A program made the translations under genes and the position numbers. Source: Squalus acanthias (taxonomy: Eukaryota). From it: a DNA stretch of 64,000 nucleotides. The stretch spans positions 143,904,001-143,968,000 of the forward strand of contig CM059431.1 in the NCBI GenBank assembly GCA_030390025.1, in the 5' to 3' direction. A model generated the notes under the pieces. It was not told where the DNA came from and searched no databases. It saw nothing but the letters and a program-made list of their open reading frames with translations. Shown in pieces: positions 7,539-62,088 of this stretch. Every line of letters starts with the position of its first letter. The stretch's first letter is position 1.

Positions 7539-8444
7539 TTAGTTTTTCATTTTTTTAACCAATATCAGAATCAATATCCAAGGAGATTTCACCACCTTCT
7601 TCAGCTCTTCCCTGAATTTAGTTTGTGTAGCTGCATAAATGCAAGTGTTTGTACAGGAACTCAAATACATGAGCATAGATCCGGTTAGAGTGGCGATCAA
7701 TGCAGGAGATGTATAATCGGGTCGGTGATGCACGGCCAGGTTGATAACTATAGAATTCACGGCAGATGTCAGCCACTACAATACAAAACTGCCCGATAGT
7801 GAACAGTAAAATTATGGATTTCCTTCTGTTTTCCTTCTCTGGATCGCTCTGATTCTCACTACTGTGACCCCGGAGTCCCCTGCGGGCTCTACTGGCAACT
7901 AAAATACGTTTGACTGTCAAACAATTAAACAGTAATATCAAAACAAAAGGAAGACATGGGTTTAAAATACTTTGTAAGCGGTTGTAAGCTACACCTGCAG
8001 GCGATGTATAAAAGGCCGCAATGGGGCGGAATCCCCAGGGAACATTGTTGCTTATTTGTTTGCGTTGAAAGGCAAACCAAAATGGGATGTTCTCTAAATA
8101 AACCAGGACAGAGACCGTTGTTATAACCGAGGCCGCAGTTCTCACTGTGCAATACTTCGTTTTAAACTTCTGACAACATATAGCTACAAATCGGTCAAAT
8201 GTGAAGGAGACGGTAAACTACACCGACATATCCAGGTTGGTACAAGACATGTACATCATGAACTTACAAACGGCAGTGTAGGACAGGAATGAATATGGGA
8301 AGTGATGACTCAAAATGTGATATACGATTACATTGATGATCATGACCAGTAGATCTGCTGTTGCCATGGCCACCATGTAGAGAGAGATACATTTGGAAAT
8401 TCCGCATTTTCCTCTGGAGAGTATCACCATTGTCAACAGGTTCG
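7539..8444 (-). pseudogene. GPR139-like class A GPCR, exon 2; disabled
   Basis: ANLLTMVILSRGKCGISKCISLYMVAMATADLLV...FTFDRFVAIC...SSCTNTCIYAATQTKFREEL. TAG at 8218-8220 where W is expected, plus a frameshift near 7795. Acceptor ttcttacAG ends at 8445. Confidence 0.9.
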
Positions 8445-8934
8445 CTGTAAGAAAGAGGGACAAGAGTAAGTAATGGGGACACGTGAATAAATCTTACAGC
8501 GTATTGTGGGGAGATGAGGCGATGCGTTCCTATTGAGGGTTATGCACACGGTTTCTCTGTATAATATAGACGAGCGTTGACGATATATTTTTCAAACGGA
8601 AGTAATAATTAAACACCCAATATCGAGGGACTGAAAGTAATCATTAAACACCCAATATCGAGGAACTGAGAATGTCCATCCTTCCAGCACACTTCAGTCA
8701 GACTGTGTCAAGGTGGTGGGTGGGGTTGGGTGTTGGGAGGGTCGCTCGTATTCAGTATTGGCAATGGTAACGGATAGCGGCCCCAACACCACCGACAGAC
8801 AGACACTGATGGCTCAATGGAGGAGAATTTTGACTTTGGGCGACAGTGTAAAACGGGCGACATCGGCTCAGCCGTCCATGATCCATCTCTTCCGGCTGAA
8901 ACTCCATCGGTATCGCCACTGATACTGTATTCAT

Positions 8935-10067: not shown

Positions 10068-10439
10068 TTTTAAAAAAACTGTGCGAAACCTGTGCAGCTT
10101 TACGATTCGGACTGGAGTGTATCTGATTTCGGTAAATACACCCCATTTATAGAACAATGGGAGCCCCGGTCAGCAAAACAGTTTACAAAATAAGTGGCGT
10201 TAGTTACAGTCACGTAACAAACAAGCGGCGATTTTCCGCTTCAGTGCGCCGGGCCGCCAGTGGGGAAATTGTACGGAAAGTAATCCCAGAGAGAATGTGC
10301 CCTGCGCATGGTCCCTGAACGCTGAATGGAACATCTCTCCTGGACTCTGCGTTAGGCTCTTGAGGTCTCAAATTACTTCGGTGAAAACTTCACTCATCCA
10401 TTGCATAACCTAATTTTGTCTTTTTACTGTGATGATACC

Positions 10440-12540
10440 TAGTGATGAGTCTACTCTAATATTACTGGCAATGATTCATCGCTAACATTACTAGTGATGA
10501 CTCCTCTCTAACATTGCTGGCGGTGCCCTACTCTAATATTAATGTTGATGACGCTACGCTGACATTAACGGTGGTGATACTGTTCTACCGTTACTGTTGG
10601 TGATTATACTCTAACAGTACCGCTGGTAACTCAACCCAAGAAACACTGGAGACGGCTCACTCTAACATTATTGCTTGTAATCTTAATCTAATATTACTGG
10701 TGGTGACCCTACTCTAATATTTCAGGTGGTGACTCTATTACCACCTTACTGGTGTTGACCCTACTCTAACATTACTGGTGGTGAGTCTACTCTAACATTA
10801 CTGTTGGTAACTCTACTCTAACATTAATGATGGTGGCTCTACTCTAACATTACTGTTGGTAACTCAACTCTAACATTACTGTTGGTGACTCTACTCTAAC
10901 ATTACTGTTGGTGACCCTGCGCTAACATTGCTGGTGGGGAACCAACTCTAACATTACTGCTGGTGAGCGTACATTAACTTTACTGGCAGTGACTCTAATG
11001 TAATATTACTACTGGTGACTGTACTCTAATTATAGGGGTGATGACTATACTCTAACATAATTGTGGTGACCTTACTCAAACATTACTGGTGGTGACCCTA
11101 CTCTAACATTACTGGCGGTGACTATACTCTAAGATTACTGGTGGTGACCCTACTCTAACATTACTGGCGGTGGCCACACCCTCATATTAATAGTGGTGAC
11201 TCTACTCTAACATAACTGGTGGTGACCCTACTCTAACATTAATGGTGGTGACTCTACTCTAACATTACTGGTGGTGACCCTGCTCTAACATTAATAGTGG
11301 TGACTCTACTCTAACATTACTGGTGGTGACCCTAATCTAACATTACTAATGGTTACCCTACTCTAACATTAATGGTGGTGACTCTACTCTAACCTTAATG
11401 GTGGTGAATCTACCCTAACATTACCGGTAGCGACTCGGCTCGAACATTACTGGTGGTGACTGTACTCTAACATTACTGGTGGTGACCCTACTCTAACATT
11501 AATGGTGGTGACTCTACTCTAACCTTAATGGTGGTGAATCTACTCTAACATTACCGGTAGTGACACGGCTCGAACATTACTGGTGATGACTGTACTCTAA
11601 CATTACTGGTGGTGACTCTACTCTAACATTACTGGTGATGACCCAACTCTAACATTACTGGTTGTGACCCTACTCTAACATTATTGTTGGTGACCGTACT
11701 TTAACATTACTAGTGGTGACCCTACTCTATCATTACTGGAGGTGACTCTACTCTAACATTACTGGTTGTGTTTCTACTCTAACATTACTGGTGAGGACTC
11801 TACTCTAACATTACTGGTGGTGACCCTACTCTTACATTAATGTTGGTGGATCTGCTCTAACATTACTGGTGGTGACCCTAATCTAACATTAATGGTGGTG
11901 ACTCTACTCTGACATTACTGGTGGTGACCCTTCTCTTACATTAATGTTGGTGACACTACTCTAACATTACTGGTGGTGACCCTGCTCTAACTTTACTGGT
12001 AGTGAACCAACTGTAACAGTACTGGTGGTGACCGTACACTAACTTTACTGGTAGTGGCTCTACTGTAGCATTACTGGTTGTGGCTGTACTGTAACATTAC
12101 TGCAGTGACCCTACTCTAACTTTACTGGAGGTGAACCAATTATAACATTACTGTTGGTGACGCTACTCTAACATTACTGGCGGTGACCCTACTCTAACCT
12201 AACTGGAGGTGAACTAACACTAACATTACTGGCGTTGACCGTACATTAACTTTACTGGTAGTGACCCCACTGTAACATTACTGGTGATGACTCTACTCTA
12301 AAATGACTGCTGGTGACTCTACTCTAACATTACTGGCAGTGACCCTACTCTAACATTGCTTCTGGTGACTATATTCTCATGTCATTGGTGATGACCTTAA
12401 TCTAGCATTACTTGTGGTGACCGAACAGTAACATTACCGATGGCGAGTCTACACTATCAGTACTGGTGTTCAGTCAACACTAACATTTTTGGTGGTAACC
12501 CTATTCTATCATTATTCTTGATGACTATACACTAACATTA
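10440..12540. repeat. 26-bp minisatellite
   Basis: Unit ctactctaacattactggtggtgacy repeated over ~2.1 kb; more degenerate at the edges. Confidence 0.95.
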
Positions 12541-12574: not shown

Positions 12575-12762
12575 TACATAAGATCATAAGAATTAGAAAC
12601 AGGAGTCAAAGAGTCATAGAGTCATATTCATAGTCCCTTACGGTACAGATGGATGCCATTCGGCCCATCGAGTCTGTGCCTGTCTCTCTGCAGAGCAATT
12701 CAGTCAGTACGATTCCCCCGCTCTATCCTCGTAGCCCTGCAAGTTTATTTTCCTCAAGTTTA
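12575..12762 (-). mobile_element. CR1 LINE 3' tail/UTR (left half of the LINE split by the provirus)
   Basis: agagtcatagagtcat tail and gccattcggcccatcgag 3' UTR motif; the sequence resumes at 24845. Confidence 0.8.
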
Positions 12763-14712
12763 TGTAAGGAGTATCTTAAGTGGGGTCAGCCTCCAGTTTC
12801 TGACACAGTGAGCGGTTCGAATCACTGCAACACCCCTCCGGTTCCTAGACTTTGGGCTTATTTAGGGGTTGTGAACAAAATTGCAGTAAACAGGTTCTGA
12901 TGAAAGAAATTTACTTTATTAAAAGAAAAAAAAGGTAACAAACTTGAAACACACTTATTACTTAAACACAGATTCGGGAAACACACGGTACAAGCGAGGG
13001 AAATGACAATATATCAAACAAAACCTTATCCCTCCCAAAGATCCCACTATCTGGCTAGGTTTTTGGTTTCAGGATATCAGGGATAATGCTCACCAACGAA
13101 TCCTTGACAGGATATTAGAGTCTTTTGTTTGAAAGGACTCCGTCAGGCCCTTGGTGCTGCGAGGTGTCTGATGGCCACTGCGGCAGTCGCCCTGGTTCCT
13201 TCTTGCTTTGGCCTTCTTCCTCGTGGCTTGGGTAAGTTTTGCTGGAGCAGGGAGAGAGCTCTGTCCGCATCGCCAGTCAGTCCAAAAAGAGAGAGCGAGA
13301 TTATGGCACAGGCTTTCAAATTATACCATTTCTTTTTCGCGCTCAAAAACCCCTTACTAAAACGAATTCCTTTTTGAATGTAAATGACTTTTGCTTCGTC
13401 CAATTGTCTAGTTTTAGGCGGGCTTGCCAGTTCCGATGGTTTTTGCTTAGTGTTAATCGCTTTCCGATTTAAACACCGCCTTATCTACGCGCCAAATCTC
13501 CACCTATTGTTCTTCTGTTGGCGGGCTTTTAAATCTGTTCTCTGGTAACCTGGTTGATTGTTTTTTTTGATTGGATAATGGCTATGAAACTGTGTGATCG
13601 AAGTTATAATGGCCCAGAAATTAAACAGTGAGTGTTCCCGCGGGGGTAAGGATTCCCCACGATATCGCACTCCGCAGCCTACCTTTTTGCTCCGGGCCCA
13701 CACGGACTTTAGTTTGAAAGGCTCCCTCTCTTGGAACCGTGCAGTGCTTGCGTGATCCAGAGACGCAATTAGTTCGTGCGAGCTCTGGGATCACGTGATT
13801 CAGTTAGAGCCAATGGCAGCACACCATCTTTCAGTCATAGATTTGACAGGAAGACCTGTCAAAGCTATGAATACTACACGCCCCCAAAAGAACAGCTAAA
13901 CCTCAATTACATTTTTTAAAAAAGCCATCACATTAATAAAATAAGTATAGTTAAATAAATTAACCACTTTAAACAAAAAATTTAATTTTTGAAAAAATTT
14001 AAAATTCTTTTTAAAAGTTATAAAAATAAACTTACCTTTCTTTAAAGTCTCTAAAAAAGATAAAACTGTTGAAAAAAATTTAAAATAACACTTAATTAAA
14101 TACTTACCTTGTTAAAAGGGGGTCCTACGCCTGCTTTCTTTATGTGTAAAATCTTCACCACTTACCTGCGCGTTCAAAGCTGAAAAAATAACTAAGTGCA
14201 CAGCCTGTAGCGCGCATGCGGTTCACTTAGGAACCACCCTCTTTTGAATTCACGAAGTGCCGGTTTCCCGCGCATGCGCAGTGCATGCAGGAAACCGGCA
14301 ATTGGAGACCTAATACGCGAGAGTACACATTGCGTATTCTCGCGTATTAGGTCTAATTTTCGGGCCATTGTCATTGAATCGTTTTTAGATTTCCAGCATC
14401 TTGTTTGCCCCTGGGGATCCATTATTGAATGTGTTTGTGAGTTTTGCTATTGTTTCAAACAATTCCCAGACAGCTTGATCTGTTCACTGACCGGCCACGC
14501 CCATCGCAACTTGAGTCTGTGAAAAAAATGTCTCTCCCAACAATAAGATTAAAAAAAAATCAGTTTCCTCAGGTTTTCTTCTTGTGATCTTTCTGTTTTT
14601 ACATCAAATCTCTTCACCTGAGGTCCCATCATCCCAAGTTTGTATGAAAAGTCCAAAAATCACTCCCTTTAGGGCTCTGTTCGAGTTTCTGGGGGATTTT
14701 GCGAAGCCTACA
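12763..14712 (-). mobile_element. 3' LTR of provirus copy 2 (with 756-bp insertion)
   Basis: Near-identical to 23647-24844 apart from the insertion at 13611-14366; preceded on the minus strand by PPT aaagtgggaa (14713-14722). Confidence 0.95.
13611..14366. mobile_element. Non-autonomous TIR element (MITE, probably Harbinger-type) inside the 3' LTR
   Basis: Termini ggcccagaaatta...taattttcgggcc; flanked by AAT/ATT; absent from the 5' LTR (empty site gttatattgtca, ~24495-24506). Confidence 0.85.
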
Positions 14713-14994
14713 TTCCCACTTTGATACTAACACTGAATTAGTATCATTAACAGGTGAGCAAAATTTCCGATCCCCGAAAACCAACTTTCCCCTGCATTAC
14801 CTAAACTAAAAACCCAACCATTCATTCCTCTTTTGAAAGTGGTGTTTCAGGTACATACATGTAAGAATCAATCTTTATTTCACACCAAGCACGGAGAGGG
14901 TCCGACACCCCTGCACAGCTTGGAAAAAACACATCATACACATCATAAAAATGACACAACACACATACAATTTTTTTTTATTAAAAGACAAAAT

Positions 14995-17346
14995 TCAAGG
15001 TTCGTTCCATCCCTGGCCATAGCCTTTATTTTGATGCACTTCCCAAGTCCCTTCGTGTCTGGAGCGGAGCTCCCCGTCCCTTCCCCTGCACTTTGTACAC
15101 AGCAGGTAGAGAACTATCCCGAGCTGGCAGACCACCAAAAGATGGGAAGCCATCCTGATCCAGGACGGCACCTCTATATTCTCGAAAATATCCCACCAGG
15201 GTGGAACTACTATATCCAAAATCTCTGCCCCTATTTCAACTGTTTTCTGTTCCAGGGTGTAGAAATGGTTTCGTGAAATCTCTACAGCTTTAAGTAGGAT
15301 GGTAAGATGTTCGGGTAGAGGGGGAATTTTATATCCAAAGTAAGTCACATACTTTTGCAGGTTGGTGATGTTTTCTGTTACAGTGAGGTGAACAGTGGAG
15401 TGTTCAGGAATGGGGACAATCCGTTCCTGGGCCACTTGAACTTCTGCCTTGGGTTTAAAGCAGAAACTGCTGTCACTTACCAGACACCAGAAGTGTCCAT
15501 GCTGGTAGTGGGACGCACCTGTGGTGACACAATATGTCCCACCCCCTATATATGCTACCTATGGGGAAACATGGCCGTCTGCCATCACCTCCATGGTACA
15601 ATTGAAAGGTCGTGCGCCAGCAGCTTTAAACCCGCACTGTGGTTTGGAATAGGCGTTCAAGTGCTGGGGACACAGTATTATGTGTGAACCGCGGCTCCGG
15701 CACCGGAGAGGTCAGTACCTGTCATGGCGTGCTCCCACTTGATGACAAAAGGTGGGACCGCTGTAAAACGGATGTGTGCACCCCCTTGAATGACTTCAAT
15801 GTTCTCCACCCTGTATACCGGTACGGGTCGGGCTGTCCCACTCATAACCGGCTTTCTCACTACTATCCCCATGATAGTGTGATTTGAACGCCCACAATCT
15901 ATTGGGACAGGGTAGGCTTCAGAGGCTAGACGAAATTGGCATGGGCTCAGCGAAGTACTAATCGGGTGGAGGGCTGCAAGGTGCTTGTTGCTGATCCAGG
16001 AGGGGACTAAACCTTGCTTTAAATCCTCCAGGTTGCTACGGCCCTCGCCCAGCAAGCATGCCCCGTACAGCACACACACCTCATTCTGTGCAGCCTGATC
16101 CGATGCATTCCTATCCTCCTGTATGGGTGCATTTACTGTTTTGGCATGCCTTTCCAATTCTGCAATACTTTCCTTTAAATGAACCGTCATAGCTTGGTCC
16201 TCATGTAGCTCTGAGCCTACCACTGTGTTCCATCCTTCAGCTTCTTTCTTAACTGGGTTTTTAAACCATTTATCTGTGTCTGTAATTCCATGTCATCCAG
16301 GCTCTTTATTACAGAGGACCCTGCACTATAGGCAGTGAAGACATCATTCCAGGCTCCCCTTCTTTGTCTACCCGTGCCCATAGGGTTCTCAGGGTGTATT
16401 CTGTATAGCTCTACTTTGTCTATATTGGCAAAATCAAATTCGTAAAATTCCCTAAACATTTCCTTTAGCAGGGCCTGGTACAGCTGCTCCGTTTCCTTAG
16501 GACACCACTCAGGTAAGTATACCTCGGTAAGGTTTAATATTACTGAAGCTACTGCATAGTGTACCCCCTGGTATAGTAGCTTTTCGGTTGGTACTCGGAC
16601 TAACCCATTCCCTGGACCATTGGTGCTGGTAGGGCACTTTTCTTCCAGGGTTTTCGCTACCTGGGTCGTGGGTAGGGGCTTTCGAGTGTGTGCCACGAGT
16701 TCAGAGGCATTAACTGGGACCGGAATGTGTGGGACCACGCACCCATGCAGGCTAGAATCCCACCCTATCCCCTCCCCGGCATCTTGCCATTGGCTGGAGA
16801 AGATGATGGATACCCCTGTGGGGCAGGCTTCCTCTGATCCCCACATACAAACATAGACTCCCTGTTCCGACTCCCACCACTTATTCCAGCAAACACTAAC
16901 TCCTCCTTGGGTCCCTGTGATTGTCCGGTTGGTGTCGTTCCCTAATCTTTCCCAGTCGGCTGTATGGTCCCCTGCGTCCCTGCTCAGCTTCCTGAGCCAA
17001 CACCACCTATTCAAGGGAATTCGTCCCTTACAGGTAAGGCACACACGCTTCCCCTCGGTGACACTGACCCTTGTGGCAACGACCTGTATTCTGGGGCATG
17101 GGAGGGAGGCCTTCCCGTACGTGAACCCGGGCTGGTTGTAGTATTTAGTAGAGTTGGACCCCAGCCACCCTGGCCACCTTCCCTCGTGGAAGTAGATGGC
17201 GAGCTCCTTCACTCCCCGCTCGCCACCCCTGCGTTGACGACTGGTGCTCTCACTCCTGAGCACCCATAGATGTGGGAGTCCTCCACGTCACCTCGGTCAC
17301 CGATGCTCACCCCTACCAGGGCGAGCAGGAGCAGAAACCTTGTCAT
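14995..17346 (-). pseudogene. env: env glycoprotein (signal peptide, Ig-like module, furin site, heptad repeat, Cys-rich region, TM); frameshifted
   Basis: ATG at 17346 gives MTRFLLLLALVGVSIG. ORF pieces 16217-17263, 15678-16223 and 14995-15435. RQRR|GAWNDVFTAYSAGSSV at 16358-16369; DLSGC..ILCPQ..CGF..NCTMEV..YCVTT..FCF; PPWWDIF followed by a hydrophobic TM. Confidence 0.85.
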
Positions 17347-17919: not shown

Positions 17920-20900
17920 CTAAACAGATACACCTGTGGCCACAGTAGCCTTTGCTGTGGTGTGCGGGGAGACCTTCTTAGGGCTCTGGCCACTGGGGGT
18001 GTGCTTGAGTCCCACATAATCGGTGGAGTGACCTCTCCTGTGAGACAACACACTGCCCTCTCGCTGCAGCTTGTACGTCTGCCACAGCTGCGGCTGGCTG
18101 CGGATTTCTATCTTGGGGCCATTCAGCTTTGGCGGTTGTTCCCTTTTAGGTTTAAATAGTTTGCATTGGTTGATGTGAAACCACTTTGTACGGCGGGGCA
18201 TCTTTATGGCATAGACCATGGGGCTTGCCTTGTCTACAATGTTGTAGGGCCCCATGTACAATGGTTCGAAACTCCCTACCCGGGCAAAATTTCTCACCAT
18301 GACCTGATCTCCAACCTCCCACTCGTGGTGCTTGCGGGTTTCCAGCAGCAATGGCTTACCCCGATGCTGTTTTCCCATGTTACTCGCAGCCTGCCAGTGG
18401 ACCTGTTTAAGGTGGTCCAACAGATTGCTGACGAATCTGTCCCGGTTCAACTCCCTGAGCTGCCCTTCCGTGAGCACCGGGGCTAGCACATGGGTGGGGT
18501 CCGCATAATCCTGCCAGTCATGAGCTGGTGTGGGGAATACCCCGTGCTTTTTCACTGGCTGGCCCGGATCCCCATTAGAACCAACGGTAAGGCTTCTATC
18601 CACTTTTTGGGTGAGTTTCCCATCTCCTTTCGCAGCCTTTCCTTGATGGTACGGTTTAAACGCTCCACAATCCCTGATGACTGTGGGTTGTGGGCGACGT
18701 GCCATTTCCCTTCTATGCCGAGTACCCTGAGGGTCTCTTGCATGACCTGCCCAGTAAAGTGACTCCCCTGGTCTGACTCCACATACTGTGGAAGCCCCCA
18801 CCGTGAGAACACTACCCTGACCAGAATCCTGGCTGTACCCAAAGCGGTAGCTGTTCGACATGGAAAAGCTTCCACCCACTTTGAGAACACATCCACCAGG
18901 ACTAGGCAGTATTTGTAGCCTCGCTGAGCGGTGGGTAGGGGCCCGATGTAGTCGACCTGGATCGACTGCCATGGTCCCTCTACCCTCCTGATGTGTCCCA
19001 TATATACCTTCCTTTTCTGGGGGTCAGGGTTGTTGGCAGCACACACCAGACAGCCTGCACAGAACTCGCGGACATCCTCCCTCAGTCCTGGCCACCATCC
19101 TGCCTGTTCCACCCGCTGCCAGGTGGTCTCAGGCCCGGGATGCCCCGCTCCTGGTCCCGCATGGGCCAGTTGGAGGAATTCCCTTCGGTGCTGCTGCGGC
19201 ACTACCTATTGTTCCCCCCTGAATAGCGTGCCTTCTTTGTGGGTGATGGCTGCTGCGCCGTATGGGCCCTCTACCTTCTCTCCTCTAGCCAGCGTTTCCA
19301 GGACAGTTTTTAGGATGGGATCCTGTGCCTGGACCGTCTTTAGGTCCGGGGTCAATGCTACCCCTGCACTCCGTTGGGTCCCTCCTCTACCTCTGATTGC
19401 TGCACCGGGTTTGATCCATATGGATCCCACAACGTGCCTGTACTGGCGCCCTCTTTGGCCAGAATGTCGGCTTGGTGATTGCCCTCTGCGCGGGGCTCTA
19501 ACTTGGAATGTGCCTTCACCTTTTGGATGTAGACCCTACCTTCCTCCCTGACTGCCCTCATGATTTTCTCCAACAGAGGCTTGATGGCCAGGCGTCTCCC
19601 ATCAGCGGAGGTGTATCCACGACGGGACCAGATGGCCAGGTACTCTGTACACGAATTGCATGTGAACACGCTGTCGGAGCAAATAATGTATGGGGTAGGG
19701 AATTCCTCGGGGTGTGTGACTACATACACCACCGCAGACAGTTCAGCCTGCTGGGCACTCATGGTGCTGGGGAGCTTGATTGCCAGAGCAATGCCTGTCT
19801 CTGGGTCATAAATCCCACACCCTGTGAGTCGTTTTCCAGCTGATGCTGTGCTTGAACCGTCCACATATATTTCGCGGCCTGTGGGGTGTATCCCACCTCG
19901 CAAACCTATGTTGACTTCCCATACACCTTCAACCGAACACCGGTGGGCTGTCCCTGAGTAAATCATGTTAGCTGCGAGCTTTGGCTCGCAGAGACCTTTT
20001 ACCCTCAGATCCATTTGTGAGAGAAGCAGGGTCCAGCGAGCAATGCGGGCATTGCTCACTGTCCCATCATTAATTCTCCCATCCAAGAGCATCTGGGTGG
20101 GCGTGTGGTGAGTGAGGAGTGTGATGGGAGAGGTGCCTGTGAAGACCAATGATCTTTTCACAGCCCAGTGAGTGGCTAGGAGGTGCCTCTCACAGTTGGA
20201 GTAGCTCCTCTCCACATCAGTGAGTATTCTGGAGGAGTAAACAGCTGGTCTCAGCTTGCCATGCCTCTCTTGGAGCAGTACTGCACTCAGACTGTCCCCA
20301 CTGGCTGCTACCTCCAGAAAAAAACTCTTTCCCTCCATCAATGGCCCCTAGAGCCGGAGCGGTCTGCAGATCTCTCTTGAGTTTCACAAAGGCAGCCTCG
20401 CAACCCTCATCCAAAACCCACTCCCCTCCCTTGTGTAGGAGTCGGAGCAGAGGGGCTGCTGTGGCTGCGTAATCCTCAATGAAATCTCTGCAGTACCCAG
20501 TTAGCCCTAGAAAAGACCTTACTCCTGTAACTTTGTTGGGGGCTGGTAACTCCTGAACTGCTTCCCTTCTAGCTTTGTCAATGGTCCTCTCCCCTGCTCG
20601 CACAGCCAGGCCCAGGAATTTAACATCCCGCTGGCCAATCTGTGCCTTCTTGGGGTTTACTTTAAAGCCTTCTTGCTTGAGCAGTTCCAGCAGTTCTGCC
20701 AGAAGGGGACCATGTTCCTCTCCCTCATCGGTAAAGAGGAGTAGGTCGTCCACATACTGGACCAGCTGATGGGGCCTGCTGAAGCCCATCAAGCAATTCG
20801 CCATACATTGGTGAAAAATGCTTGGGCTGTTGTGGAAATCCTGGGGCAGACAGTTCCATGTGTACTGTGGGCCTTTAAATGTAAAGGCGAACTTGTACTG

Positions 20901-21820
20901 ATCCTCTCTCCTTAGAGGGATGGACCAGAACCAGTTGGAAATATCCAGCACTGTAAAGATATTCGCAGATGCTGGGATACTTCCAATGAGGTCGGCTACG
21001 GCTGCAACCGTGGGGGCACAGGCGGGGATGTTTCGGTTGAGTACTCGATAGTCCACTGTGGCCGTCCAGGAGTTGTCTGGTTTTCTAACCGGCCACAGTG
21101 GGGAGTTCACGTGGGTGACTATAGGTCTCAATACCCCCTGCTTGAGTAAAGAAGTCAAAGCCGTTTCCAAGTCTGTCTCAGCTTCCCTGGGGAAGTTATA
21201 CTGCTTTTGTGGGCGGTTCATGGGGTCCCCACTTACACTAACCTCGACCCCGGTTACCCTCCCACAGTCGTGCTTGTGAGTGGCAAATGCTGCGAGGTTT
21301 TCCTGCACAAATTCCTGGTACTCCATTGGAGTGTTACTGACCATGAGTTCGAGGTCGTAACCCTCCTTTGGTTTTACTTTGCACAAGGTCCCCTTGCCTT
21401 GTGCCTCCGGGATGACTGCTACATCAGTACCTTTTGGGTACATGCTCCCCATAGACAGTGGTTCCTTAAATCCACTAAAATCCTGTGGCCTGTGATAAAA
21501 TCGGCCCCCAGGATCCCCTGCCCTTCTTGCTCCCACTTCATTAGGACACAGGTCCACTTGGTGTGGAGCGTTCCCAAATGAATGGAAAGCGGGATGGAGA
21601 ATGAGCCAGCCTGCTCGTTACCTGTGAATCCCACTAGGCTGTACGGGACCCCGTTAGACAGAGGTGAAGTGGCTGCGTTATCTGAATAAATGAGGGTGCT
21701 CGAAGCTCCTGTGTCTAACAGATAGGTCCCTTCTACCTTTTCTACCTCCATCTTAACATGCGGTCTCTTCCAGGCATCATACTCGACGGGACACAGGTAG
21801 ACCGGCTGTGCTAGCTCCAG
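17920..21820 (-). pseudogene. pol: pol: protease, RT, degenerate RNase H (tether), RNase H, integrase; frameshifted
   Basis: PR LLDTGAS...GILGADF; RT WPVRK, VLDISN, LPQDFHNSP, YVDDLL; tether LEVAAS/CERHLLA/THH; RH YVDGSS/AELSAV/CSDS/NHQAD; IN H-H-C-C, VDYIGP, SDQG, GIVER, GPY. Confidence 0.92.
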
Positions 21821-23644
21821 TCATGCCTCTGGGTTGGGTGGGGCAGATGGGATCAGAGAGCCAGTGGCTGTAGCCACCTTCCCTGGGCCATCAAACAGGT
21901 CTATGCTGGCCGCTACTATTGTGTCCAGTGTGGGGGAACAGGTCGGTGCCTCAACTTTTGGGGCAGGAGTTGGTGACGTCTTTGCTAGGCTATCCTTCCA
22001 GGGATTCCTACTGTCCTTTCTCCAGTGCCCAGTCTTCCCGCACCCGAAGCAGCTACGCTTCGTGTCGGAAGGTTTACCACCTTCCTGGTGCCACTCCTTC
22101 TTATCCTGGCTGGGCTTTATCTCATGCACCTTCCCTTTCGGTGGGGTGTCTTCTGCTCCCCTACCGTTCCGGTAGGGTAGTGTCAGTTGCCTGACCACTG
22201 CCTCCTCGGTGACCCGGGGATCTCTTGTGTCAAACCAAAGCTCAGACTTGGCTTTTACTCGTGGCAAGCTGTTTGCCACTAGGCTACGGACCAAGTGGGC
22301 CAGCTCGTCCCTGTTCAGGTTAGCCCGGTCGAGAGCCCCATTACAAGCACCCCTGTACACCGGCCACAGCCTGTCTGCGAAAGCCTGTGGCATCTCCCCT
22401 GCGAGCTGCACTGTTTTCTCCACCCGGGAGAAAGGACTTCCCTCATTCATTCCCATGGCCTCTAATACTTCCTCCCTTACGGCAGCATACCCGGTCTGTC
22501 CTCTCTTGCTCTCAGCAGAGAGTGTCTGGTAGAAATTGCCATCTCATGAGAACAGGAGCAATTTTGCCATTTCGGCATCGTCACAATCGTTTATGGCTGC
22601 TGATTGTTCCACCTCCATGAAGTGGACTGAGGGGTCTTCCTTTTGGGTAAGTTTACTCAGGTGGCTTACCATAGCTCTAAGCTGTTGTGTACCGTGGGGA
22701 GCCAAGAACTGACTTTCAAGGGGTCCCTGACCTCCACCACCGGCGGGCGGGCCGAATTTTTGCTGTCGTGCTGGGCACATTCGTCCTGGCTCCGACTTCT
22801 CCTGCATCGGTTCGCCCCCCTCTCCCTGCTGCCAGACCGAGTCAAAACTCGGCGCCACAGGTGCTGGTGTGCACTCCCTGTCAGCCTCACAGATTGTCTG
22901 CACCTCCTGCTGCCTAACCAAGCTTCTCCTTGGCGCCACAGGTGGTGTTCTAACAGTCTCCCCCTGCTCTTCCAGGTCTGCCTGGGCCGCACCCGGACTT
23001 ATCCGGCACAGCATGCCTTTCGTCTTGGACAGAGCAAGGTTCAGACTCTCAATCTGCTTCTGACAGGGGCCGTGGTCCCCTACCTCAAACGCCGTTGTAC
23101 TGGCTACTCTATAGGCTGCCTGAACATCGTTTAACTTCTCTCTGAGTTCCCGTAATTGCTTTGCAAGGCGGGTGTTCTCTTCCCGCAATGCCAGTTCACT
23201 ACTTTTGGCCTCGGTGGCCTGACACTCGAGGTATCACTTACTGGCACGGTGTTCCTCCAGCATCTGTGACTGTTCCTGATCTTTTGTGCCGAGCTCTGCT
23301 AACAACCTATCCCCTGCTATAGCACTGGCACGGGACAGTTGGCTTTCTTCCGTTAGCTCTTCTGTGAGAGCATGAATGAGCTTCCCCATAAGCTGCATTT
23401 GTTTCTGGGAGCAGACCAACCATATGGCTTTCTCCACAGACTTATTGTATTCCTTGCTCTCAGTCCATGCAGCTGCAGCGTCCATAGGACGTTCAGCATG
23501 CAACAGCCTGAGGACCCATTTCTTGGTGTTATTTACTTTTTTATATACATAGGATGACATCCTCTCTTCCATTTTTGTTCTCTCCTCAAAACCAGCATTT
23601 ACTGCTTCACAACCCTTTCGCCAAAGTCCTGCCGCGGTCGCCAT
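21821..23644 (-). pseudogene. gag: gag: N-terminal coiled coil, capsid-like region, zinc knuckle; two internal TGA stops
   Basis: ORFs 23234-23644, 22544-23188 and 21821-22456 share one frame; heptad-rich REENTRLAKQLRELREKL; knuckle CFGCGKTGHWRKDS with the last Cys replaced by Ser. Confidence 0.88.
23626..23643 (-). promoter_or_regulatory. Primer-binding site complementary to tRNA-Arg(TCG)
   Basis: Plus strand gtcctgccgcggtcgcca equals the 3' 18 nt (with CCA) of vertebrate tRNA-Arg-TCG as I recall it; 3 nt from the 5' LTR. Confidence 0.85.
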
Positions 23645-23646
23645 TC

Positions 23647-24844
23647 TGTAAGGAGTATCTTAAGTGGGGTCAGCCTTCGCTTTCTGACACAGTGAGGGGT
23701 TCGAATCACTTCAACACCCCTCCGGTTCCTAGACTTTGGGCTTATTTAGGAGTTGTGAACAAAATTGCAGTAAACAGGTTCTGATGAAAGAAATTTACTT
23801 TATTAAAAGAAAAAAAAGGTAACAAACTTGAAACACACTTATTACTTAAACACAGATTCGGGAAACACACGGTACAAGCGAGAGAAATGACAATATATCA
23901 AACAAAACCTTATCCCTCCCAAAGATCCCACTATCTGGCTAGGTTTTTGGTTTCAGGATATCAGGGATAATGCTCACCAACGAATCCTTGACAGGATATT
24001 AGAGTCTTTTGTTTAAAAGGACTCCGTCAGGCCCTTGGTGCTGCGAGGTGTCTGATGGCCACTGCGGCAGTCGCTCTGGTTTCTTCTTGCGCGCTGGTCT
24101 TCTGGCCTTCTTCCTTGTGGCTTGGGTAAGTTTTGCTGGAGCAGGGACAGAGCTGTGTCCGCGTCGCCAGTCAGTCCGAAAAGAGAGAGAGATTATGGCA
24201 CAGGCTTTCAAATTATACCGTTTCTTTTTCGCGCTCAAAAACCCCTTACTAAAACGAATTCCTTTTTGAATGTAAATGACCCTTGCTTCGTCCAATTGTC
24301 TAGTTTTAGGCGGGCTTGCCAGTTCCGATGGTTTTTGCTTAGTGTTAATCGCTTTCCGATTTAAACACCGCCTTATCTACGCGCCAAATCTCCACCTATT
24401 GTTCTTCTGTTGGCGGGCTTTTAAATCTGTTCTCTGGTAACCTGGTTGATTGGTTTTTTTGATTGGATAATGGCTATGAAACTGTGTGATCGAAGTTATA
24501 TTGTCATTGAATCGTTTTTAGATTTCCAGCATCTTGTTTGCCACTGGGGATCCATATTTGAATGTGTTTGTGAGTTTTGCTATTGTCTCAAACAATTCCC
24601 AGACAGCTTGATCTGTTCACTGACCGGCCACGCCCCTCGCAGCTTGTGTCTGTGAAAAAAATGTCTCTCCCAACAATAAGATTAAAAAAAAATCAGTTTC
24701 CTCAGGATTTCTACTTGTGATCTTTAGGTTTTTACATCAAATCACTTCACTGAGGTCCCATCAACCCAAGGTTGTATGAAAAGTCCAAAAATCACTCCCT
24801 TTAGGGCTCTGTTCGAGTTTCTGGAGGATTTTGAGAAGCCTACA
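23647..24844 (-). mobile_element. 5' LTR of provirus copy 2 (1198 bp)
   Basis: TGTA...TACA termini; direct repeat of 12763-14712. Confidence 0.95.
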
Positions 24845-26405
24845 GTGTCTATCCGGTCTCCCCTTGAAAACATTGAGTGTGTCCGCTTCCACCACTTCCG
24901 TCGGCAGCGAGTTCCAGGTCATCACCACTCGCAGCGTATAAAGTTTTTCCTCACGTCCCCCCTGCATATCTTGCCCAAAACCTTAAATCTGTGTCCCCTA
25001 GTCTTTGTACCACCAATTAGTGGGAACAGCCTTTCTCCATCTAGCCTGTCCAAACACTTCGTAATCTTGTACACTTCTATCAAATCACCCCTCAACCTTC
25101 TTTGCTCTAATGAAAACAAGCACAGGTTCTCCAACCTTTCCTTGTAGCTAAGATCCCCCATCCCAGGAACCATTCTTGTAAATCTCCTCTGCACCCTCTC
25201 AAGGGCCTTTACATCCTTCCTAAAATGTGGTGATCAGAACTGGACGCAATACTCCAGTTGTGGCCTAACCAGCGCTTTATAAAGGTTCAGCATAACTTCT
25301 CTACTTGTGTACTCAATACCTCTATTTATGAAGCATAAGATTCCATATGCTTTGCTCACCACTCTCGCAATAAGTTCTTCCACCTTCAGGGATCTATGCA
25401 CATTAACTCCCAGGTCCCTCTGTCCCTGCACACTCTTCAAAACTGTGCCATTAAGTGTATATTGCTTCTCCTTATTCCTTCTGCCAAAATGCATCACCTA
25501 CACTTCTCTGAATCAAATTCTATCTTCCACTTGTCTGCCCATACTGCCAGCCTTTCTATGTCCTTTTGCAGTCGATTGGTATCATCCTCAATGTTAGCCA
25601 CACCACCAAGTTTGGTGTCATCGGCAAATTTAGAAACTCAACTCTGTATTCCAATATCCAAGTCATTTTTTTATATCAAAAAGCAGTGGCTCCGGCACCG
25701 ACACTTGGAGAACACCACTGTCTAACATACTGCAGTCTGAAAAACAGGCAGTCACCAAAACTCGCTGTTTTATGTCCTTAAGCCAATTCATTATCCAAGC
25801 TGCCACTGACACACCTATTCCATGAACCTCAATTTTGTTAACCAGCCTTCGAAGTGGTACTTTGTCAAACGCCTTCCGAAAATACATGTAGAAAACATCT
25901 ATTGCATTCCCTTCATCAATCCTCCCTGTTACTTCATCACAACTTTTAGATAGATTTATCAAACACGATCTGCCTTTTACAAATCCGTGTGGTTCTCCTT
26001 AATGAGCTTAAACCTCTCTAAGTGCTCGATAATTTTTTCCTTGATTATTGTTTGTAAAACTTTCCCCACCACCGATGATAAACTGGCTGGCTTTAGTAAC
26101 AAGGATTATCCTTACACCCTTTCTTGAACAATGGTATCACATTTGCCAAATTTCAATCCTCAGGCATCTCCCAGGCATCTAGGGAAGATTGCAAAAATAT
26201 GGCAAGCCCGCCTGCTATCTCCTCCCCCAATTCCCTTAGCAACCTGCGATGCAAGTCATCAGAACTAGGCGACTTGTCCACTCTAAGCATAACCAGCCTT
26301 TCTAGTGCATCCTGACTATCAATTTTCAAACCCTTCATTCATTCTACCTTTTCCACTTCTACCGATATATTATCAGCATCCACCTCCTTAGTAAACACCG
26401 ACACA
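24845..26405 (-). mobile_element. CR1 LINE, 5'-truncated ORF2 (RT) remnant
   Basis: DKSP..D.LH.R.L.EL, YMYFRKAFDKVP, LVRPQLEYCVQF, TRGHRFK; many stops. Confidence 0.9.
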
Positions 26406-26496
26406 AAGTCATAGAGTCATAACGGCACAAAATAAGGCTATTCGGCCCATGGAGTACGTGCCGGCTCACTGTAGAGCAATGCAGTCAGTCCCATTC

Positions 26497-29400
26497 ATAG
26501 AGTCATAGATTTATACAGCACAGAAAGAGGTCCTTCCGCCCATCGTGTCCGCGACGGCCATCAAGCTCTATCTATTCTAATCCCATTTTCCAGCACTTGG
26601 TCCGTAGTCTTGTATGCTATGACGTTTGAAGTGTTCATCTAAATGCTTCTTGAATGTTGTGAGGCTTCCTGCCTCTATCACCCTTTCAGGCAGTGAGTTC
26701 CAGATTTCAACCACCGTCTGGGTGAAAAAGTGTTTCCTTAAATCCCCTCAAAACCTCCTGCCCATGACCTTGAAACTATGCCCCCTGGTTATTGACCCCT
26801 CCATTAAGGGGAAAAGTTCATTTCTATCTAACCTATTTATGCGACTCATAATTTTGTACACCTCCATCAGGTCCCCTCTCAGCCTTCTCTGCTCTAAGGA
26901 AAACAACCCCAGCCTGTTCAGTCTCTCTTCATAGCTGAAGCGCTCCAGCCCAGGTAACATCCTGGTGAATCTCCTCTGCACCCTCTCCAAAGCAATCACA
27001 TCCTTCCTATAGGGTGGCGACCAGAACTGCACACAGTATTCCAGCTTTGGCCTAAGTAACGTTTTGTACAGCTACATCAAAAGCTCTCTGCTCTTATATT
27101 ATATGCCTCGGCTAATGAAGGCAAGTATCCCATATGCCCTTTTAACCACCTTATCTACCTGTCCTGCTGCCTTCAGGGATCTATGTACATGCACACCAAG
27201 GTCCCTCTGATCCTCTGTCCTTCCTAGGGTCCTACCATTCATTGTGTATTCCCTTGCCATGTTAGTCCTCCCAAAATGCATCACCTCACACTTTTCAGGC
27301 TTAAATTCCATTTGCCACTGTTCTGCCCATCTGACTATATCGTCCTGTAGCCCGAGGCTTCCCTCCTCGCTACTTACCACTCCACCAATTCTTGTGTCAT
27401 CTGCGAACTTACTGATCATACCTCCTACATTCATATCTACACTACAAACAGCAAAGGACCAAGCACCGATCCCTGCGGTACACCACTGGACACAGGCTTC
27501 CAGTCACAAAAACAACCTTCGACCATCATCCTCTGCCTCCTGCCACTAAGCCAATTGTGGATCCAATGTGCCAAATAGCCGTGGATCCCATGGGCTCTTA
27601 CCTTCTTGACCAGTCTCCCATGCGGGACTTTGTCAAAAGCCTTACTGAAGTCCATGTATACTGCATCAACTGCACTACCCTCATCCACACACCTAGTCAC
27701 CCCCTCGAAAAATTCAATGAAACTAGTGAGACATGATCTCCCCCTGACAAAGCCATGCTGACTATCCTTGATTAATCCTTGCCTCTCCAATTGGAGACTA
27801 TTTCTGTCCCTCAGAATTTTTCCAATTATTTCCCTACCACTGATGATAGGCTCACTCGCCTGTAATTCCCTGGATTATCCCTAGTACCCTTCTTGAATAA
27901 TGGTACTACGTTAGCTGTCCCCCAGTCCTCTGGCACCTCCCCTGTGGCCAGAGAGGTTCTTAAAATTTGTGTCAGAGCCCCTGCAATCTCCTCCCTTGCC
28001 TCACACAGCAGCCTGGGATACATCTCGTCTGTGCCTGGGGACTTGTCCCATTTGAAGCCCACTAAAACCGCTTGTAGCTCCTCCCTCTCAATGCTAATTT
28101 GTTCAAGTATATCACAATCCCCCTGCCTGATTTATATGCCTACATCATCCTTCTCCATAGTGAACACAGACGCAAAATATTCAATTAAAACCTCACCCAC
28201 ATCTTCCCGCTCTACACACAGATTGCCACTTTGGTCCCTAATGGGCCCTACTCTTCCCCTGTATATCCTCTTACCCGTAATATACTTATAAAGCACCTTG
28301 GGATTTTCCTTTATTTTGCATGCCAGTGTGTTTTCATGCCCCCTCTTCGCTCTCCTAATTCCTTTTTTAAGTACCCCCATGCACTTTCTATTCTCCTCTA
28401 GGGCTTCCACTGTTTTGAGTCATTTGTATCTGCCAGAAGCCTACCTTCTTTTCCTAACCCATTCTTTTATATCCCTTGACATCCAGGGTTCGCTGGGCTT
28501 GTTGGTCCCACCCTTGACATTTACGGGAACATGTTGGCATTGTACTCTCTCTATTTCCTTTCTGAAAGACTCCCTCTGCTCTGATTTGGATTTTCCTACA
28601 AGTAGCTGATCCCAATCCACTTTGGCCAGATCCTGCCTTAACATATTAAAATAGGCCTTCCCCCAATTTAGAACCTTTATTTCCGGTCCATCTTTGTCCT
28701 TTTCCATGACTACCTTAAATCTCACCGAATTATGGTCACTGTCGCCAACATGCTCTCCTATTGACAGTCCTACCACTTGCCTGGCTACATTCCCTAGAAT
28801 TAGGTCGAGTACCGCCCCCTCTCTTGTACGACTTTCTACATGCTGGCTCAAAAAGCTCTCCTGGATGCACTTTATGAATTCTGCACCCTCTAAGCCTTTC
28901 AGTCTCTGTCTATCCCATTTAGTATTGGGGAAAATGAAATCCCCTATTTTATAACCCTATTATTTCTACAGTTCTCTGAGATGTGCCTACATATCTGTTC
29001 CTCTATCTCCCCCTGACGGCTTGGGGGCCTATATTACACTCCCAGCCAAGTGCTTGCCCCCTTTTTGTTTTTAAGTTCTACACATATGGCCTCATTAGAG
29101 GAAGCTGCTGAGATATCATCCCTCCTTATAGCTGTAATTGTCTCCTTGATTAATATTGCGACACCCCCTCCTCTTTTACACCCCCATCTGTCTCGCCTGA
29201 AGATACTATACCCCGAAATATTGAGCTGCCAATCCTGCCCCTCCCTCAACCATGTCTCTGTGATAGCAACAATATCATACTCCCATGTGTTTATCAACAG
29301 CTTCAATTCATCTGGCTTACTCGCAAGAATCCTTGCATTAAAATAAGTGCCATCCAGCCTTGCAATATTCCCTTGTGCCGTTTCATACTTGCACTGCCTT

Positions 29401-34085: not shown

Positions 34086-35877
34086 AAGGGCTAGAGGATA
34101 ACCCGGGAAAATGTAGGGCCCATTAGGGATCAAAGTGGCAAACTGTGTGTAGAGCCGGAAGATGTAGGTGAGGTTTTAAATGAATATTTTTCATCTGTGT
34201 TCACTATGGAGAAGGACGATGTAGGCATATAAATCAGGCAGTGGGATTGTGATATACTTGAACAAATTAGTATTGAGAGGGAAGTGGTACTAGCGGTTTT
34301 AGCGGACTTAAAAGTGGATAAATCCCCAGGCCCTGACGAGATGTATCCCACGCTGCTGTGTGAGGCAAGGGAGGAGATTTCTGGGGTTCTGACACAATTT
34401 TTTAGAAACTCTCTGACCACAGGGTAGGTGCCAGGGAATTGGAGGACAGCTAACGCATTACCATTATTCAAGAAGGGTAGTAGGGATAAACCAGGGAATT
34501 ACAGGCCAGTGAGCCTAACATCAGTGGTAGGGAAATTATTGGAAACAATTCTGAGGGACAGAACTAGTCTCCACTTGGAGAGGCAAGGATTAATCAAGGA
34601 TAGTCAGCATGGCTTTGTCAGGGGGAGATCATGTCTCACCAATTTGATAGAACTTTTCGAGGGGGTGACTAGGTGTGTGGATGTTGGTAGTGCAGTTGAT
34701 TTAGTCTATATGGACTTCAGTAAGGCTTTTGACAAAGTCCCATATGGGAGACTGGTAAAGAAGGTAAGAGCTCATGGGATCCAGGGCAATTTGGCACATT
34801 GGATCCAAAATTAGCTTAGTGGCAGGAGGCAGAGGGTGATGGTCGATGGTTGTTTTTGTGACTGGAAGCCTGTGTCCAGTGGTGTACGGCAGGGATCTGT
34901 GCTGGATCCTTTGCTGTTTGTAGTGTACATTAATGATTTAGATTTGAATGTAGGAGGTATGATCAGTAAGTTCGCAGATGACACGAACATTGGTGGAGTG
35001 GTAAATAGCGAGGAGGGAATCCTCAGGCTACAGGACGATACATACCGGTTTATTAGCTGGGCAGAACAGTGGCAAATGGAATTTAACCCTGTAAAGTGTC
35101 AGGTGATGCATTTTGGGAGGACCAACAAGGCAAGGGAATACGCAATGAATGGTAGGACTCTAGGAAGGACAGAGGATCAGAGGGAACTTGTTGTGCATGT
35201 ACATAGACACCTGAAGGCAGCAGAACATGTAGAGAAGGTGGTTAAAAAGGCATATGGGATACTTGCCTTCATTGGACGAGGCATAGAATATAAGAGCAGT
35301 ACAAAACGCTAATTAGGCCACAGCTGGAATATTGTGTGCAGTTCTGGTCGCCACACTATAGGAGTGATGTGCTTGCATTGGAGAGGGTGCAGAGGAGATT
35401 CACCAGGTTATTACCTGGGCTGGAGCGTTTCAGCTATGAAGAGAGACTGGACAGTCTGTGGTTATTTTCCATCGAGCAGAGAAGTCTGAGGAGGGACCTG
35501 ATTGAGCTGTACAAAATTATGAGGGTTATGATAGGGTAGAAAGAAAGGAACTTTTCCCCTTAGTAGACGGGTCAATAACCAGGGGTCATAGATTCAAGAT
35601 AAGGGGCAGGTGGTATAAAGGGGTTTTGAGGAAAAACTTTTTCATCCAGATGGTGGTTGTAATCTGGAACGTACTGGCTGAAAGAGTGGTAGAGGCAGGA
35701 ACCCTCACAACATTCAAGAAGCATTTAGATGAGCACTTGAAACACCATAGCATACAAGGCTAAGGACCAAGTGCTGGAAAATCGGATTAGAATAGACAGG
35801 GCTTGATGGCCGGCGCGGACACGATGGGCCGAAGGGCCCCTTTCTGTGCTGTATAACTCTATGACTCTATGACTCTA
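34086..35877 (+). mobile_element. CR1 LINE ORF2 3' half with (atgactct)n tail
   Basis: NYRPVSLTSVVGK, QHGFVRGRSC, KFADD; tail ctctatgactctatgactct; same subfamily as 26497-28280 in inverted orientation. Confidence 0.92.
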
Positions 35878-52346: not shown

Positions 52347-52609
52347 GTAAGTCATGAAATGGAAATTTCAAACCTTTTATTTCCCTTCAGATAATCAGAA
52401 TGATTGAATGTAACCGTTTGTTTAGAGGTTGTCAGTTTCTGGGAAACAGACGTCCAAAGTCTGAGGAAGATGAATTAATATTTATTTAGATTTTTCAATC
52501 TTATAATCTTCTGGGTAAATTGCAGTTACTATTCGCTTAGATTAGTGAATTATATGTCAATTTGCAGATTTTCTATTACTCCAGTTAATCCAGGTGCAGA
52601 ATGCTATCA

Positions 52610-60779: not shown

Positions 60780-62088
60780 GATGTATCGGCAGAGAACTAG
60801 GAAAACAGGTAAATCATGCTTGACTAATCTACTGGAATTTTTTGAGTATGTAACTGGTAGAATAGATAAGGGAGAACCAGTGGATGTGGTGCATTTGGAC
60901 TTTCAGAAGGCTTTCGATAAGGTCCCACATAAGAGATTAGCGTGCAAAGTTAAAGCACACGGGATTGGGGGTAATGTATTGTCTTGGATAGAGAACAGGT
61001 TTGCAGACAGGAAGCAAAGAGTTGGAATAAAGGTCTTTTTACCGAGTGGCAGGAAGTGACTAGTGGAATACCGAAGGGATCGGTGCTAGTACCCCAGATA
61101 TTCACAATATATATAAATGATCTAGACGAGGGAACTAGATGTAATATCTCCAAGTTTGCAGATGCCACAAAGCTGAGTGGGAGTGTGTGCTGTGAGGAGA
61201 TTGCAGATAAACTCCAGTATGATTTGGACAGGTTGGGTGATTGAGCAGATGCATGGCAGATGCAGTACAATGTGGATAAATGCGAGGTTATTCACTTCGG
61301 TGGCAAAAACAGGAAGACATATTATTACCTGAATGGCAATAGATTGGGAAAAGGGGAAGTGCAACGAGACGTGGGTGTCCTTGTTCACCAGTCGCTGAAG
61401 GTAAACATGCAAGTGCAGCAGGTGGTTAAGAAGGCAAAATGAATGTTGGCCTTCAAAGCAAGAGGATTCGAGTACAGGAGCAAGGATGCCTTGCGGCAGT
61501 TGTACAGGGCCTTGGTGACACCACACCTTGAATATTGTGTGCAGTTTTAGTCACCTTATCTGAGGAATGATGTTCTTGACATGGAGAGAGTGCAGCGAAG
61601 ATTCACCAGACTGATACCTGGGATTGCAGGAATGAAGTATGAGTAGAGATTGGGCCGATTAGGCTTATATTCGCGAGAGTTCTGAAGAATGAGAGGAGAT
61701 CTCATTGAAACTTATAAAATTCTAACAGGACTAGACAGACTAGATGAAGGCAGGGTGTTCCCGATGGCGTGGAGTCCAGAACTAGGGGTCACAGTCTAAT
61801 GATAAAGGGTAAGCCATTTAGGACTGAGATGAGGAGGAATTTCTTCACCCAGAGAGTGGTGAACCTGTGGAATTCTGTACCACACAAGGCAGTTGAGGCC
61901 AATTCATTAAATATATTCAAGAAGGAGTTAGATATATTTCTTAAGGCTGAAGGGATGAAGGGATATGGGGAGAAAGCAGCGACAGGGAACTGAATTTGGA
62001 TGATCAGCAATGATCTCATTAAATGGTGGAAATGGCTGGCGGGGCCGAATGGCCTACTCCTGCTCCTATCTTAGATGTTTCTATGTTT
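60780..62088 (+). mobile_element. 5'-truncated CR1 LINE inserted in the satellite
   Basis: GKSCLTNLLEFF...DFQKAFDKVPH...KFAD; tail atgtttctatgttt; candidate TSD caatgtaaaa at 60770-60779 and 62089-62098. Confidence 0.92.

Follow-up and report, generated by a model that had tools for sequence, protein, structure and literature searches.

Introduction

Immunoglobulin (Ig)-type heads are known from orthoretroviral envelope (Env) proteins. The receptor-binding domain (RBD) of MLV and FeLV Env is a modified IgV domain, a SIRP-derived IgV domain occurs in an alpharetrovirus-like Env, and both RBD transfer and IgV capture are described for orthoretroviral Env in the available text of one preprint (bioRxiv 2024.03.17.585361). 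In view of these heads, a first-pass annotation of the locus studied here overstated the case when it called an Ig-like domain ahead of the fusion protein unusual for a retroelement envelope. The F protein has likewise been described as a minimal scaffold that accepts receptor-binding modules N-terminally or between subunits (available text of PMC11468914).

SnRV-like endogenous retroviruses (ERVs) are known from chondrichthyans, for example lineage I of the elephant shark CmiERV (PMC4422223), and a lokiretrovirus survey screened chondrichthyan genomes, with none marked positive in the five rows available (PMC7947760). For SnRV-like Env, neither a structure nor an Ig domain is given in the accessible text of four papers (PMC4422223, PMC6001957, PMC4977317, and PMC12193657). 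The word "immunoglobulin" has no match in the accessible text of PMC12440569, bioRxiv 2023.10.26.564294, PMC10435555, and PMC4977317, nor, for lokiretrovirus Env, in 300 of 318 supplement pages (PMC7947760). Across the openly accessible papers and preprint texts covered, Ig-type heads were found in print on orthoretroviral Env, and none on F-type or SnRV-like Env.

Here, we analyzed a 64,000-nucleotide stretch of the Squalus acanthias genome (the window; GenBank assembly GCA_030390025.1, contig CM059431.1). We describe a provirus whose Env carries a predicted Ig domain, and we lean toward reading this domain as an exchangeable receptor-binding head on the predicted F-type Env of a probably SnRV-like ERV.

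Results

An abundant, probably SnRV-like retrovirus

The window contains a minus-strand, Retroviridae-like element with the order LTR-gag-pol-env-LTR, the pol domain order protease, reverse transcriptase (RT), tether, RNase H, and integrase, and a tRNA primer site (Table 1). Pfam identified the tether as a degenerate RNase H and the integrase as having a C-terminal SH3-like domain. A separate attachment gene is absent from the provirus. In the window copy, gag, pol, and env are all disrupted, and a whole Env cannot be made from it. Its LTRs diverge at about 38 of 1195 aligned sites, a figure to be read with uncertain shark rates, and the 5-bp flanks agree at three of five positions. SnRV is primed by an Arg tRNA, as the window element also shows.

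Table 1 Features of the provirus and its env gene in the window.
Feature	Position	Strand	Evidence or remark
5' LTR	23644..24844	-	lacks a ~750-bp segment present in the 3' LTR
Primer-binding site	23624..23642	-	complementary to the 3' end of host tRNA-Arg(UCG)
gag region, in pieces	21821..23622	-	coiled-coil N-terminal part and CCHC zinc knuckle
pol, in pieces	17920..21820	-	Pfam: protease, RT, tether, RNase H, integrase
Env start codon (ATG 17346) and hydrophobic signal peptide	17299..17346	-	sequence
Conserved segment of about 65 residues, without confident fold	17096..17298	-	alignment, AlphaFold2
Predicted Ig-superfamily-type domain of Env	16790..17095	-	motifs, Pfam, ESM Atlas, AlphaFold2, Foldseek, VIA
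Trp/Cys segment, then Pro/Thr-rich linker to fusion core	16637..16789	-	
F2-like core (CP...GP.NGL...LY..V)	16370..16636	-	common to all env lineages examined
Furin-type cleavage site RQRR	16358..16369	-	
F1-like part: putative fusion peptide, heptad repeats, beta domains, TM, tail	14995..16357	-	
3' LTR	12760..14712	-	96.1% identical to the 5' LTR over 862 nt and 95.1% over 346 nt

The ERV family is abundant in the 3.7-Gb host genome. All 150 scored candidates, out of 5675, matched the Ig piece at 89-100% identity, and a skate query revealed a second subfamily at 75-79% (150 of 5871 candidates scored). Contigs of four sequencing runs, which are not on record as RNA, span env including its Ig part; a look-up of RNA datasets listed none that hold it.

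A lokiretrovirus identity, first suggested by the architecture (available text of PMC7947760), was dropped on RT motifs. The nine lokiretrovirus RT rows compared read CPFGY.NSPA.FN (TPFGY in one), whereas the element reads LPQ.FHNSP.IFHQ and lacks the Loki motif VPLSR.PM. It has LDISNxFWS and PTVA, as in the SnRV row, and DISNGFWS occurred in SnRV rows only (3/3). By hand count, RT identity was about 64/131 to the SnRV row versus about 49/131 to Loki-Lca. The dual RNase H and F-like Env are present in the element, and neither is exclusive to lokiretroviruses. A scan of viral contigs with RT found no relative. The RT motifs, compared by eye, make it likely that the element is SnRV-like.

Several other features were observed in the window and the genome. 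Positions 1-1956 hold part of another copy of this element in inverted orientation (the env end and an LTR), with blastn blocks 79-90% identical to 12781-15447 and 23665-24844. The 3' pattern of tRNA-Arg(UCG) has 429 matches genome-wide, two loci being confirmed as tRNA-Arg, and it recurs in extensive tandem arrays whose units measure about 1.62 kb (G000:C26, 39.0-42.2 Mb). A GPCR-like reading at 7618-8539 (-), with TM and DRF motifs split over frames, is probably a pseudogene and resembles GPR139-type genes. Tandem arrays of 26-nt, 67-nt, and 39-nt units lie at 10439-12300, 1904-2502, and 52600-64000, and a long inverted repeat pair (25059-28276 and 34088-35872; 88-92% complementary in blocks) possibly represents two copies of another mobile element.

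Env layout and the predicted fusion core

Env is arranged as signal peptide, 65-residue segment, Ig domain, Pro/Thr linker, F2-like core, RQRR, F1-like part, and transmembrane helix (TM). The Ig motifs lie in frame 17287-16217 (-), and the TM lies near 15153-15090 (-). In the window copy, a frame break near 17.23 kb falls inside the 65-residue segment, and the signal peptide and the Ig domain are read in different frames; in other natural copies the two share one frame. The first-pass annotation had placed the Ig domain between the signal peptide and the F2-like part, and this order holds, but the frames differ and about 65 residues intervene. The F1-like part of the window copy is scattered across several frames, and frame breaks fall near 16.23 kb and near 15.7-15.6 kb. 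Some natural copies have an open Env of 778-814 residues (eight stretches).

We used one natural copy to model full-length Env (mean pLDDT 56). The best Foldseek matches in the PDB were the F proteins of hPIV3, RSV, and NDV, with E-values from 1.6e-10 (hPIV3) to 6e-9, and PIV5 and henipavirus F were also among the matches. Matches in BFVD were lispivirus G and baculovirus F, with walleye and foamy Env weaker. Env had no sequence match to the Pfam F0 family (PF00523). Its signal peptide, furin site, heptad repeats, and TM are class Ib traits. Together with the model, they point to a predicted F-type (class Ib) fusion protein of the paramyxovirus and pneumovirus kind in the remainder of Env.

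An Ig fold is predicted for the N-terminal domain

All motifs claimed for the Ig domain were recovered in the Env frame, namely VSVTEGKRVCLTC, WCWLR, VSVCW, and EQGVYVC, as was the 61-residue distance between the B-strand Cys (17032-17030) and the F-strand Cys (16849-16847). With the C-strand Trp at 16999 and D/E-x-G-x-Y-x-C in the F strand, the Ig signature is present at canonical spacing. Additional conserved Cys lie at 17098, 17041, 16891, and 16825. The middle Cys of the WCW motif is private to the window copy; at this position, 59 of 60 locus rows carry Trp.

Searches at the sequence level gave Ig matches that were all sub-threshold, which counts against the Ig and receptor-head reading. 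Ig_3 was the sole Pfam family match of a 118-amino acid piece (E 0.013; 16.4 bits against a cut-off of 30), and across the window piece and related sequences it scored 13.6-18.4 bits. The env-family profile placed mostly Ig chains at the top of its PDB matches, at E 0.017 and weaker. A phmmer search with the window ORF found nothing better than E 0.33 (basigin, Fab), and the long A1 profile gave two ferredoxin matches instead of an Ig match. In the ESM Atlas, V-set/I-set were the best named clusters (0.92-0.93), with unnamed clusters ranking higher (0.93-0.94), and all ten best named matches had one family or clan in common.

We utilized AlphaFold2 to predict the structure of the Ig region from a shallow alignment of 18 rows. 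The model is a nine-stranded sandwich of two sheets, and the best of the five models had per-block pLDDT of about 65-84 over residues 51-140 (mean 55.7 across 175 residues). The remaining four models had mean pLDDT of 40-43, so that one in five was moderately confident, and in the full-length Env model the Ig region reached only about 30-57; both results count against the receptor-head reading. Every Foldseek match listed was an Ig-containing entry, including TCR, antibody, NITR, Nav-beta, IgLON, basigin, and CRTAM, with a target TM of about 0.5-0.7 for single-domain chains. VIA gave Z scores of 10.1-8.8 across the 50 rows listed, all Ig-containing and without an outlier (73-102 residues aligned), and superposition gave an rmsd of 2.9 over 91 residues. 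Identity to any cellular Ig domain was about 10-22%. The structure check proposed for the domain thus returned Ig-containing entries throughout the matches listed, and as a prediction the Ig fold has good support.

The Ig domain is conserved and under purifying selection

We compared 60 locus rows, which represent 58 distinct loci including the window and, being all best matches, form a biased sample. The G, both B-strand Cys, the C-strand W, the E-strand Cys/Trp, G-x-Y, and the G-strand Cys were invariant in all 60, and the F-strand Cys was kept in 59. Other copies, from two subfamilies, therefore retain the signature that the first-pass annotation had wanted checked. The closest named env relatives are from skate and sawshark, and their homologues retain the Ig domain at 60-68% identity.

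Between the two subfamilies (5 × 6 copies), the Ig domain had a pN of 0.22 versus a pS of 0.82, the latter saturated, and within them omega was 0.32 and 0.20, demonstrating purifying selection. The Ig domain is nevertheless more variable than the core, with amino acid identity between subfamilies of 63% versus 74-82%. The 65-residue segment is nearly as conserved as the Ig domain (58%), and the Trp/Cys segment with the Pro/Thr linker is the least conserved part of env (51%).

Two side observations concern the ends and the annotation of env. Within one env subfamily, L006 and L037 differ from L012 and L032 in having one of two signal-peptide regions and in their HRB/TM ends, which suggests that both ends of env have recombined. 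The sawshark models P0005, P0006, and P0007 (zinc finger, Niban-like, and cadherin-related) contain env pieces; these models probably reflect fused annotations and possibly ERV pieces that became exonised.

The N-terminal slot of env is exchangeable

Alignments with distant env relatives start at the F2-like core and leave the Ig domain outside. The core motif was present in 42 of 42 host-genome loci examined, behind N-terminal modules of several unlike kinds. Between loci L114 and L107, identity is 92.7% through pol up to a point 425 nt ahead of the core, and 92.9% from 20 nt inside the core onward; in the module of about 445 nt between −425 and +20, no blastn match was found. Near-identical flanks around unrelated modules indicate that the slot was swapped by recombination, demonstrating at the DNA level that non-Ig N-terminal modules are exchanged between lineages. 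This clean swap does not involve the window-type Ig module, which counts against the receptor-head reading.

A tree of the core, which kept 48 of 54 rows (short rows L077, L078, L079, L082, L092, and L095 were dropped), placed three different modules on one tight, well-supported clade. L102 is 87-89% identical to that clade in the core and only 64-73% identical in pol. Most lineages of the branch containing the window element have a Pro/Thr-rich linker at the junction; a second Ig-like clade lacks it.

Pfam found no Ig match in 25 of 29 host-genome N-terminal segments, again counting against the receptor-head reading, and the other modules are Cys-rich, with Pfam Ig matches in 0 of 25. Ig-like N-terminal motifs nevertheless recur outside the window lineage. 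The P0023-type env clade has one and includes a bamboo-shark protein that UniRef names Ig-like; the best match of the P0023 module was VH (E 0.0046, weak), and in the P0023-type profile ZZ zinc fingers outrank Fc receptors. Frog env P0028 has another (best match VH, E 0.0034, also weak). The P0048 module also has an Ig-like motif and gave weak V-set/SLAM/CEACAM matches, with SLAMF5/CEACAM at E 0.34-0.78 behind a non-Ig match, and an ESM search with the P0022 module gave no usable match. In the modules of L100/L110, L098, L102/L104, and L113, V-x-L/I-x-C or V-C-x-x-C is followed by Trp, and these may be further diverged Ig-like domains.

Origin of the Ig module

The first-pass annotation regarded the domain as a captured host IgSF module. 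This is plausible from the canonical Cys-Trp-Cys signature, from which we infer an ultimate origin in a cellular IgSF gene. A search of the host for the donor itself found none, and the nine host V-type domains scored at most 9.3 bits. The best of them was a CADM-type V domain, with a higher score in 0 of 200 shuffles; the others scored 0.8-6.9 bits. Against the PDB, the family profile matched the CRTAM V domain best (full length, E 0.0045, 20.3 bits), and a CADM/CRTAM-type source is a lead. The Foldseek and VIA ranking is flat and singles out no donor. Host loci around C2-set matches (50 loci, 3784 stop-free stretches) yielded nothing below E 0.065, and a direct genome search was swamped by viral copies. 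As a separate observation, L128-L134, L140, and L142 (G000:C1615, C10) form a tandemly repeated cluster of host genes that contains numerous Ig exons of the C1/C2 type, nearly identical to one another. Any capture must be old because the Ig domain is common to skate and sawshark ERVs.

Alternatively, this lineage captured nothing, and the module descends from one ancient Ig-like domain of the env-clade ancestor (or from the Ig-fold domain II of F), with the other modules as its diverged remnants. We consider this possible but the less probable course. The Ig-like N-terminal motifs of the P0023-type clade, P0028, and P0048 are in its favor, as are the agreement of the W-x-x-x-W...G-x-x-x-C spacing between the window module and P0023 and a V/I-C-x-x-C motif common to several other modules. 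Against it, hhalign of the window-type and P0023-type Ig profiles gave a probability of 2.6% (E 0.018), and cross-profile scores between the Ig module and other viral modules reached at most 7.1 bits, under the 20.3 bits of CRTAM. In addition, the core tree splits the window lineage from the other Ig-bearing clade and places it among non-Ig modules, although long branches come together in this tree and the order of its deep forks is unsettled.

A broader scenario, which we put forward tentatively, is that SnRV-like retroviruses of sharks, rays, and frogs share an F-type fusogen whose N-terminal slot took up different host IgSF domains on several independent occasions (a CADM/CRTAM-like one in the window element, a V-J-like one in the frog Env, and a CD2/CEACAM-like one in P0048), as well as non-Ig modules, with entry via host Ig adhesion interactions.

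Discussion

We propose, with modest confidence, that the Ig domain of this Env is an exchangeable receptor-binding head. The proposal rests on the absence of an attachment gene, a position resembling an RBD-linker-core arrangement, and a variable, exchangeable slot. After furin cleavage, the Ig head would remain on the F2-like subunit, and its exposed face would bind a protein on the cell surface, plausibly an adhesion molecule that itself belongs to the IgSF. This contact, alone or together with endosomal acid, would then free the fusion peptide. As no attachment gene stands beside env, the head would take over the job of paramyxovirus H/HN/G. The 65-residue segment ahead of the Ig domain could be the binding part instead.

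Large DNA viruses commonly carry IgSF mimics, and the Ig domain might be an immunomodulatory or decoy mimic of a host IgSF ligand (CADM/CRTAM, nectin, or CD200) displayed on virions or infected cells, with attachment elsewhere in Env. The CRTAM V domain as best match of the family profile and the CADM-type V domain at the top of the nine host domains are compatible with such a mimic. An identity of about 10-22% to cellular Ig domains is too low for close mimicry, however, and the unrelated Cys-rich modules in the same slot of sister lineages fit an attachment slot better. The immune-decoy role suggested in the first-pass annotation thus gained no support, and we regard it as unlikely. Equally improbable in our judgment is a structural cap or chaperone that would help to fold or shield the prefusion trimer without binding any protein of the host. 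Three additional conserved Cys pairs are possible in the domain, which also has many Trp and an N-glycan sequon and is under purifying selection, as a cap might be; but one core operates with unrelated modules that differ in length, and in this lineage a flexible Pro/Thr linker parts the module from the core. Finally, a chance Cys/Trp pattern within a beta-rich viral domain would agree with the lack of any sequence match reaching a curated cut-off, but is highly improbable given that profile, language-model, and structure searches agree on Ig and that the invariant residues are the Ig signature residues.

If the domain is a receptor-binding head, a bare F-type fusogen with no attachment protein at its side would gain cell specificity through an exchangeable N-terminal head; until now, the case for such a layout has come from coronavirus spike and foamy Env. 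The transfer of receptor domains and the capture of IgV domains would then extend from mammalian orthoretroviral Env to a structurally different class of Env, and to cartilaginous fishes. With several heads on cores that are nearly identical, one genome would provide a natural series for studying Env modularity, and the isolated Ig domain would be a ready probe for receptors of SnRV-like viruses.

Compared with known systems, as their accessible text describes them, the window element resembles class Ib fusogens (paramyxovirus and pneumovirus F, foamy Env, and coronavirus spike) in combining an F-like core with an appended receptor-binding module (PMC11468914). The foamy RBD has its own fold and is inserted between subunits, whereas the window Ig domain is N-terminal, a spike-like position; paramyxoviruses, unlike the window element, use a separate attachment protein (PMC11468914). 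With lokiretroviruses the element shares gag-pol-env between LTRs, the tether and RNase H, and an Env with signal peptide, RxKR-type site, coiled coil, TM, and kinship to Mononegavirales F (PMC7947760). It shares RT motifs with SnRV-like ERVs (clade Huo; CmiERV lineage I), and its cytoplasmic tail has about 35 residues versus 136 in SnRV Env.

Env-Dbi and Env-Per, with their "RBD-C SIRP-like" domain, and the RBD-C of MLV, FeLV, and HERV-Pb likewise have an N-terminal IgV-type domain with a canonical B-F disulfide plus an extra one, and their modules have been transferred between env lineages (bioRxiv 2024.03.17.585361). In the portions available, those Env (Hotzel) are of the mammalian gamma/alpha-type SU-TM kind, with a SIRP donor clear by BLAST, whereas the window Env is predicted to be F-type, comes from a cartilaginous fish, and has a donor that was not found. 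CrocERV31 is likewise a case of IgSF sequence within a non-class-I/II ERV, in which the complete nectin3 mRNA, coding for three domains and sharing about 76% identity with the host gene, stands in place of env (available text of PMC4299795). The window element, by contrast, carries a single diverged Ig domain fused inside env.
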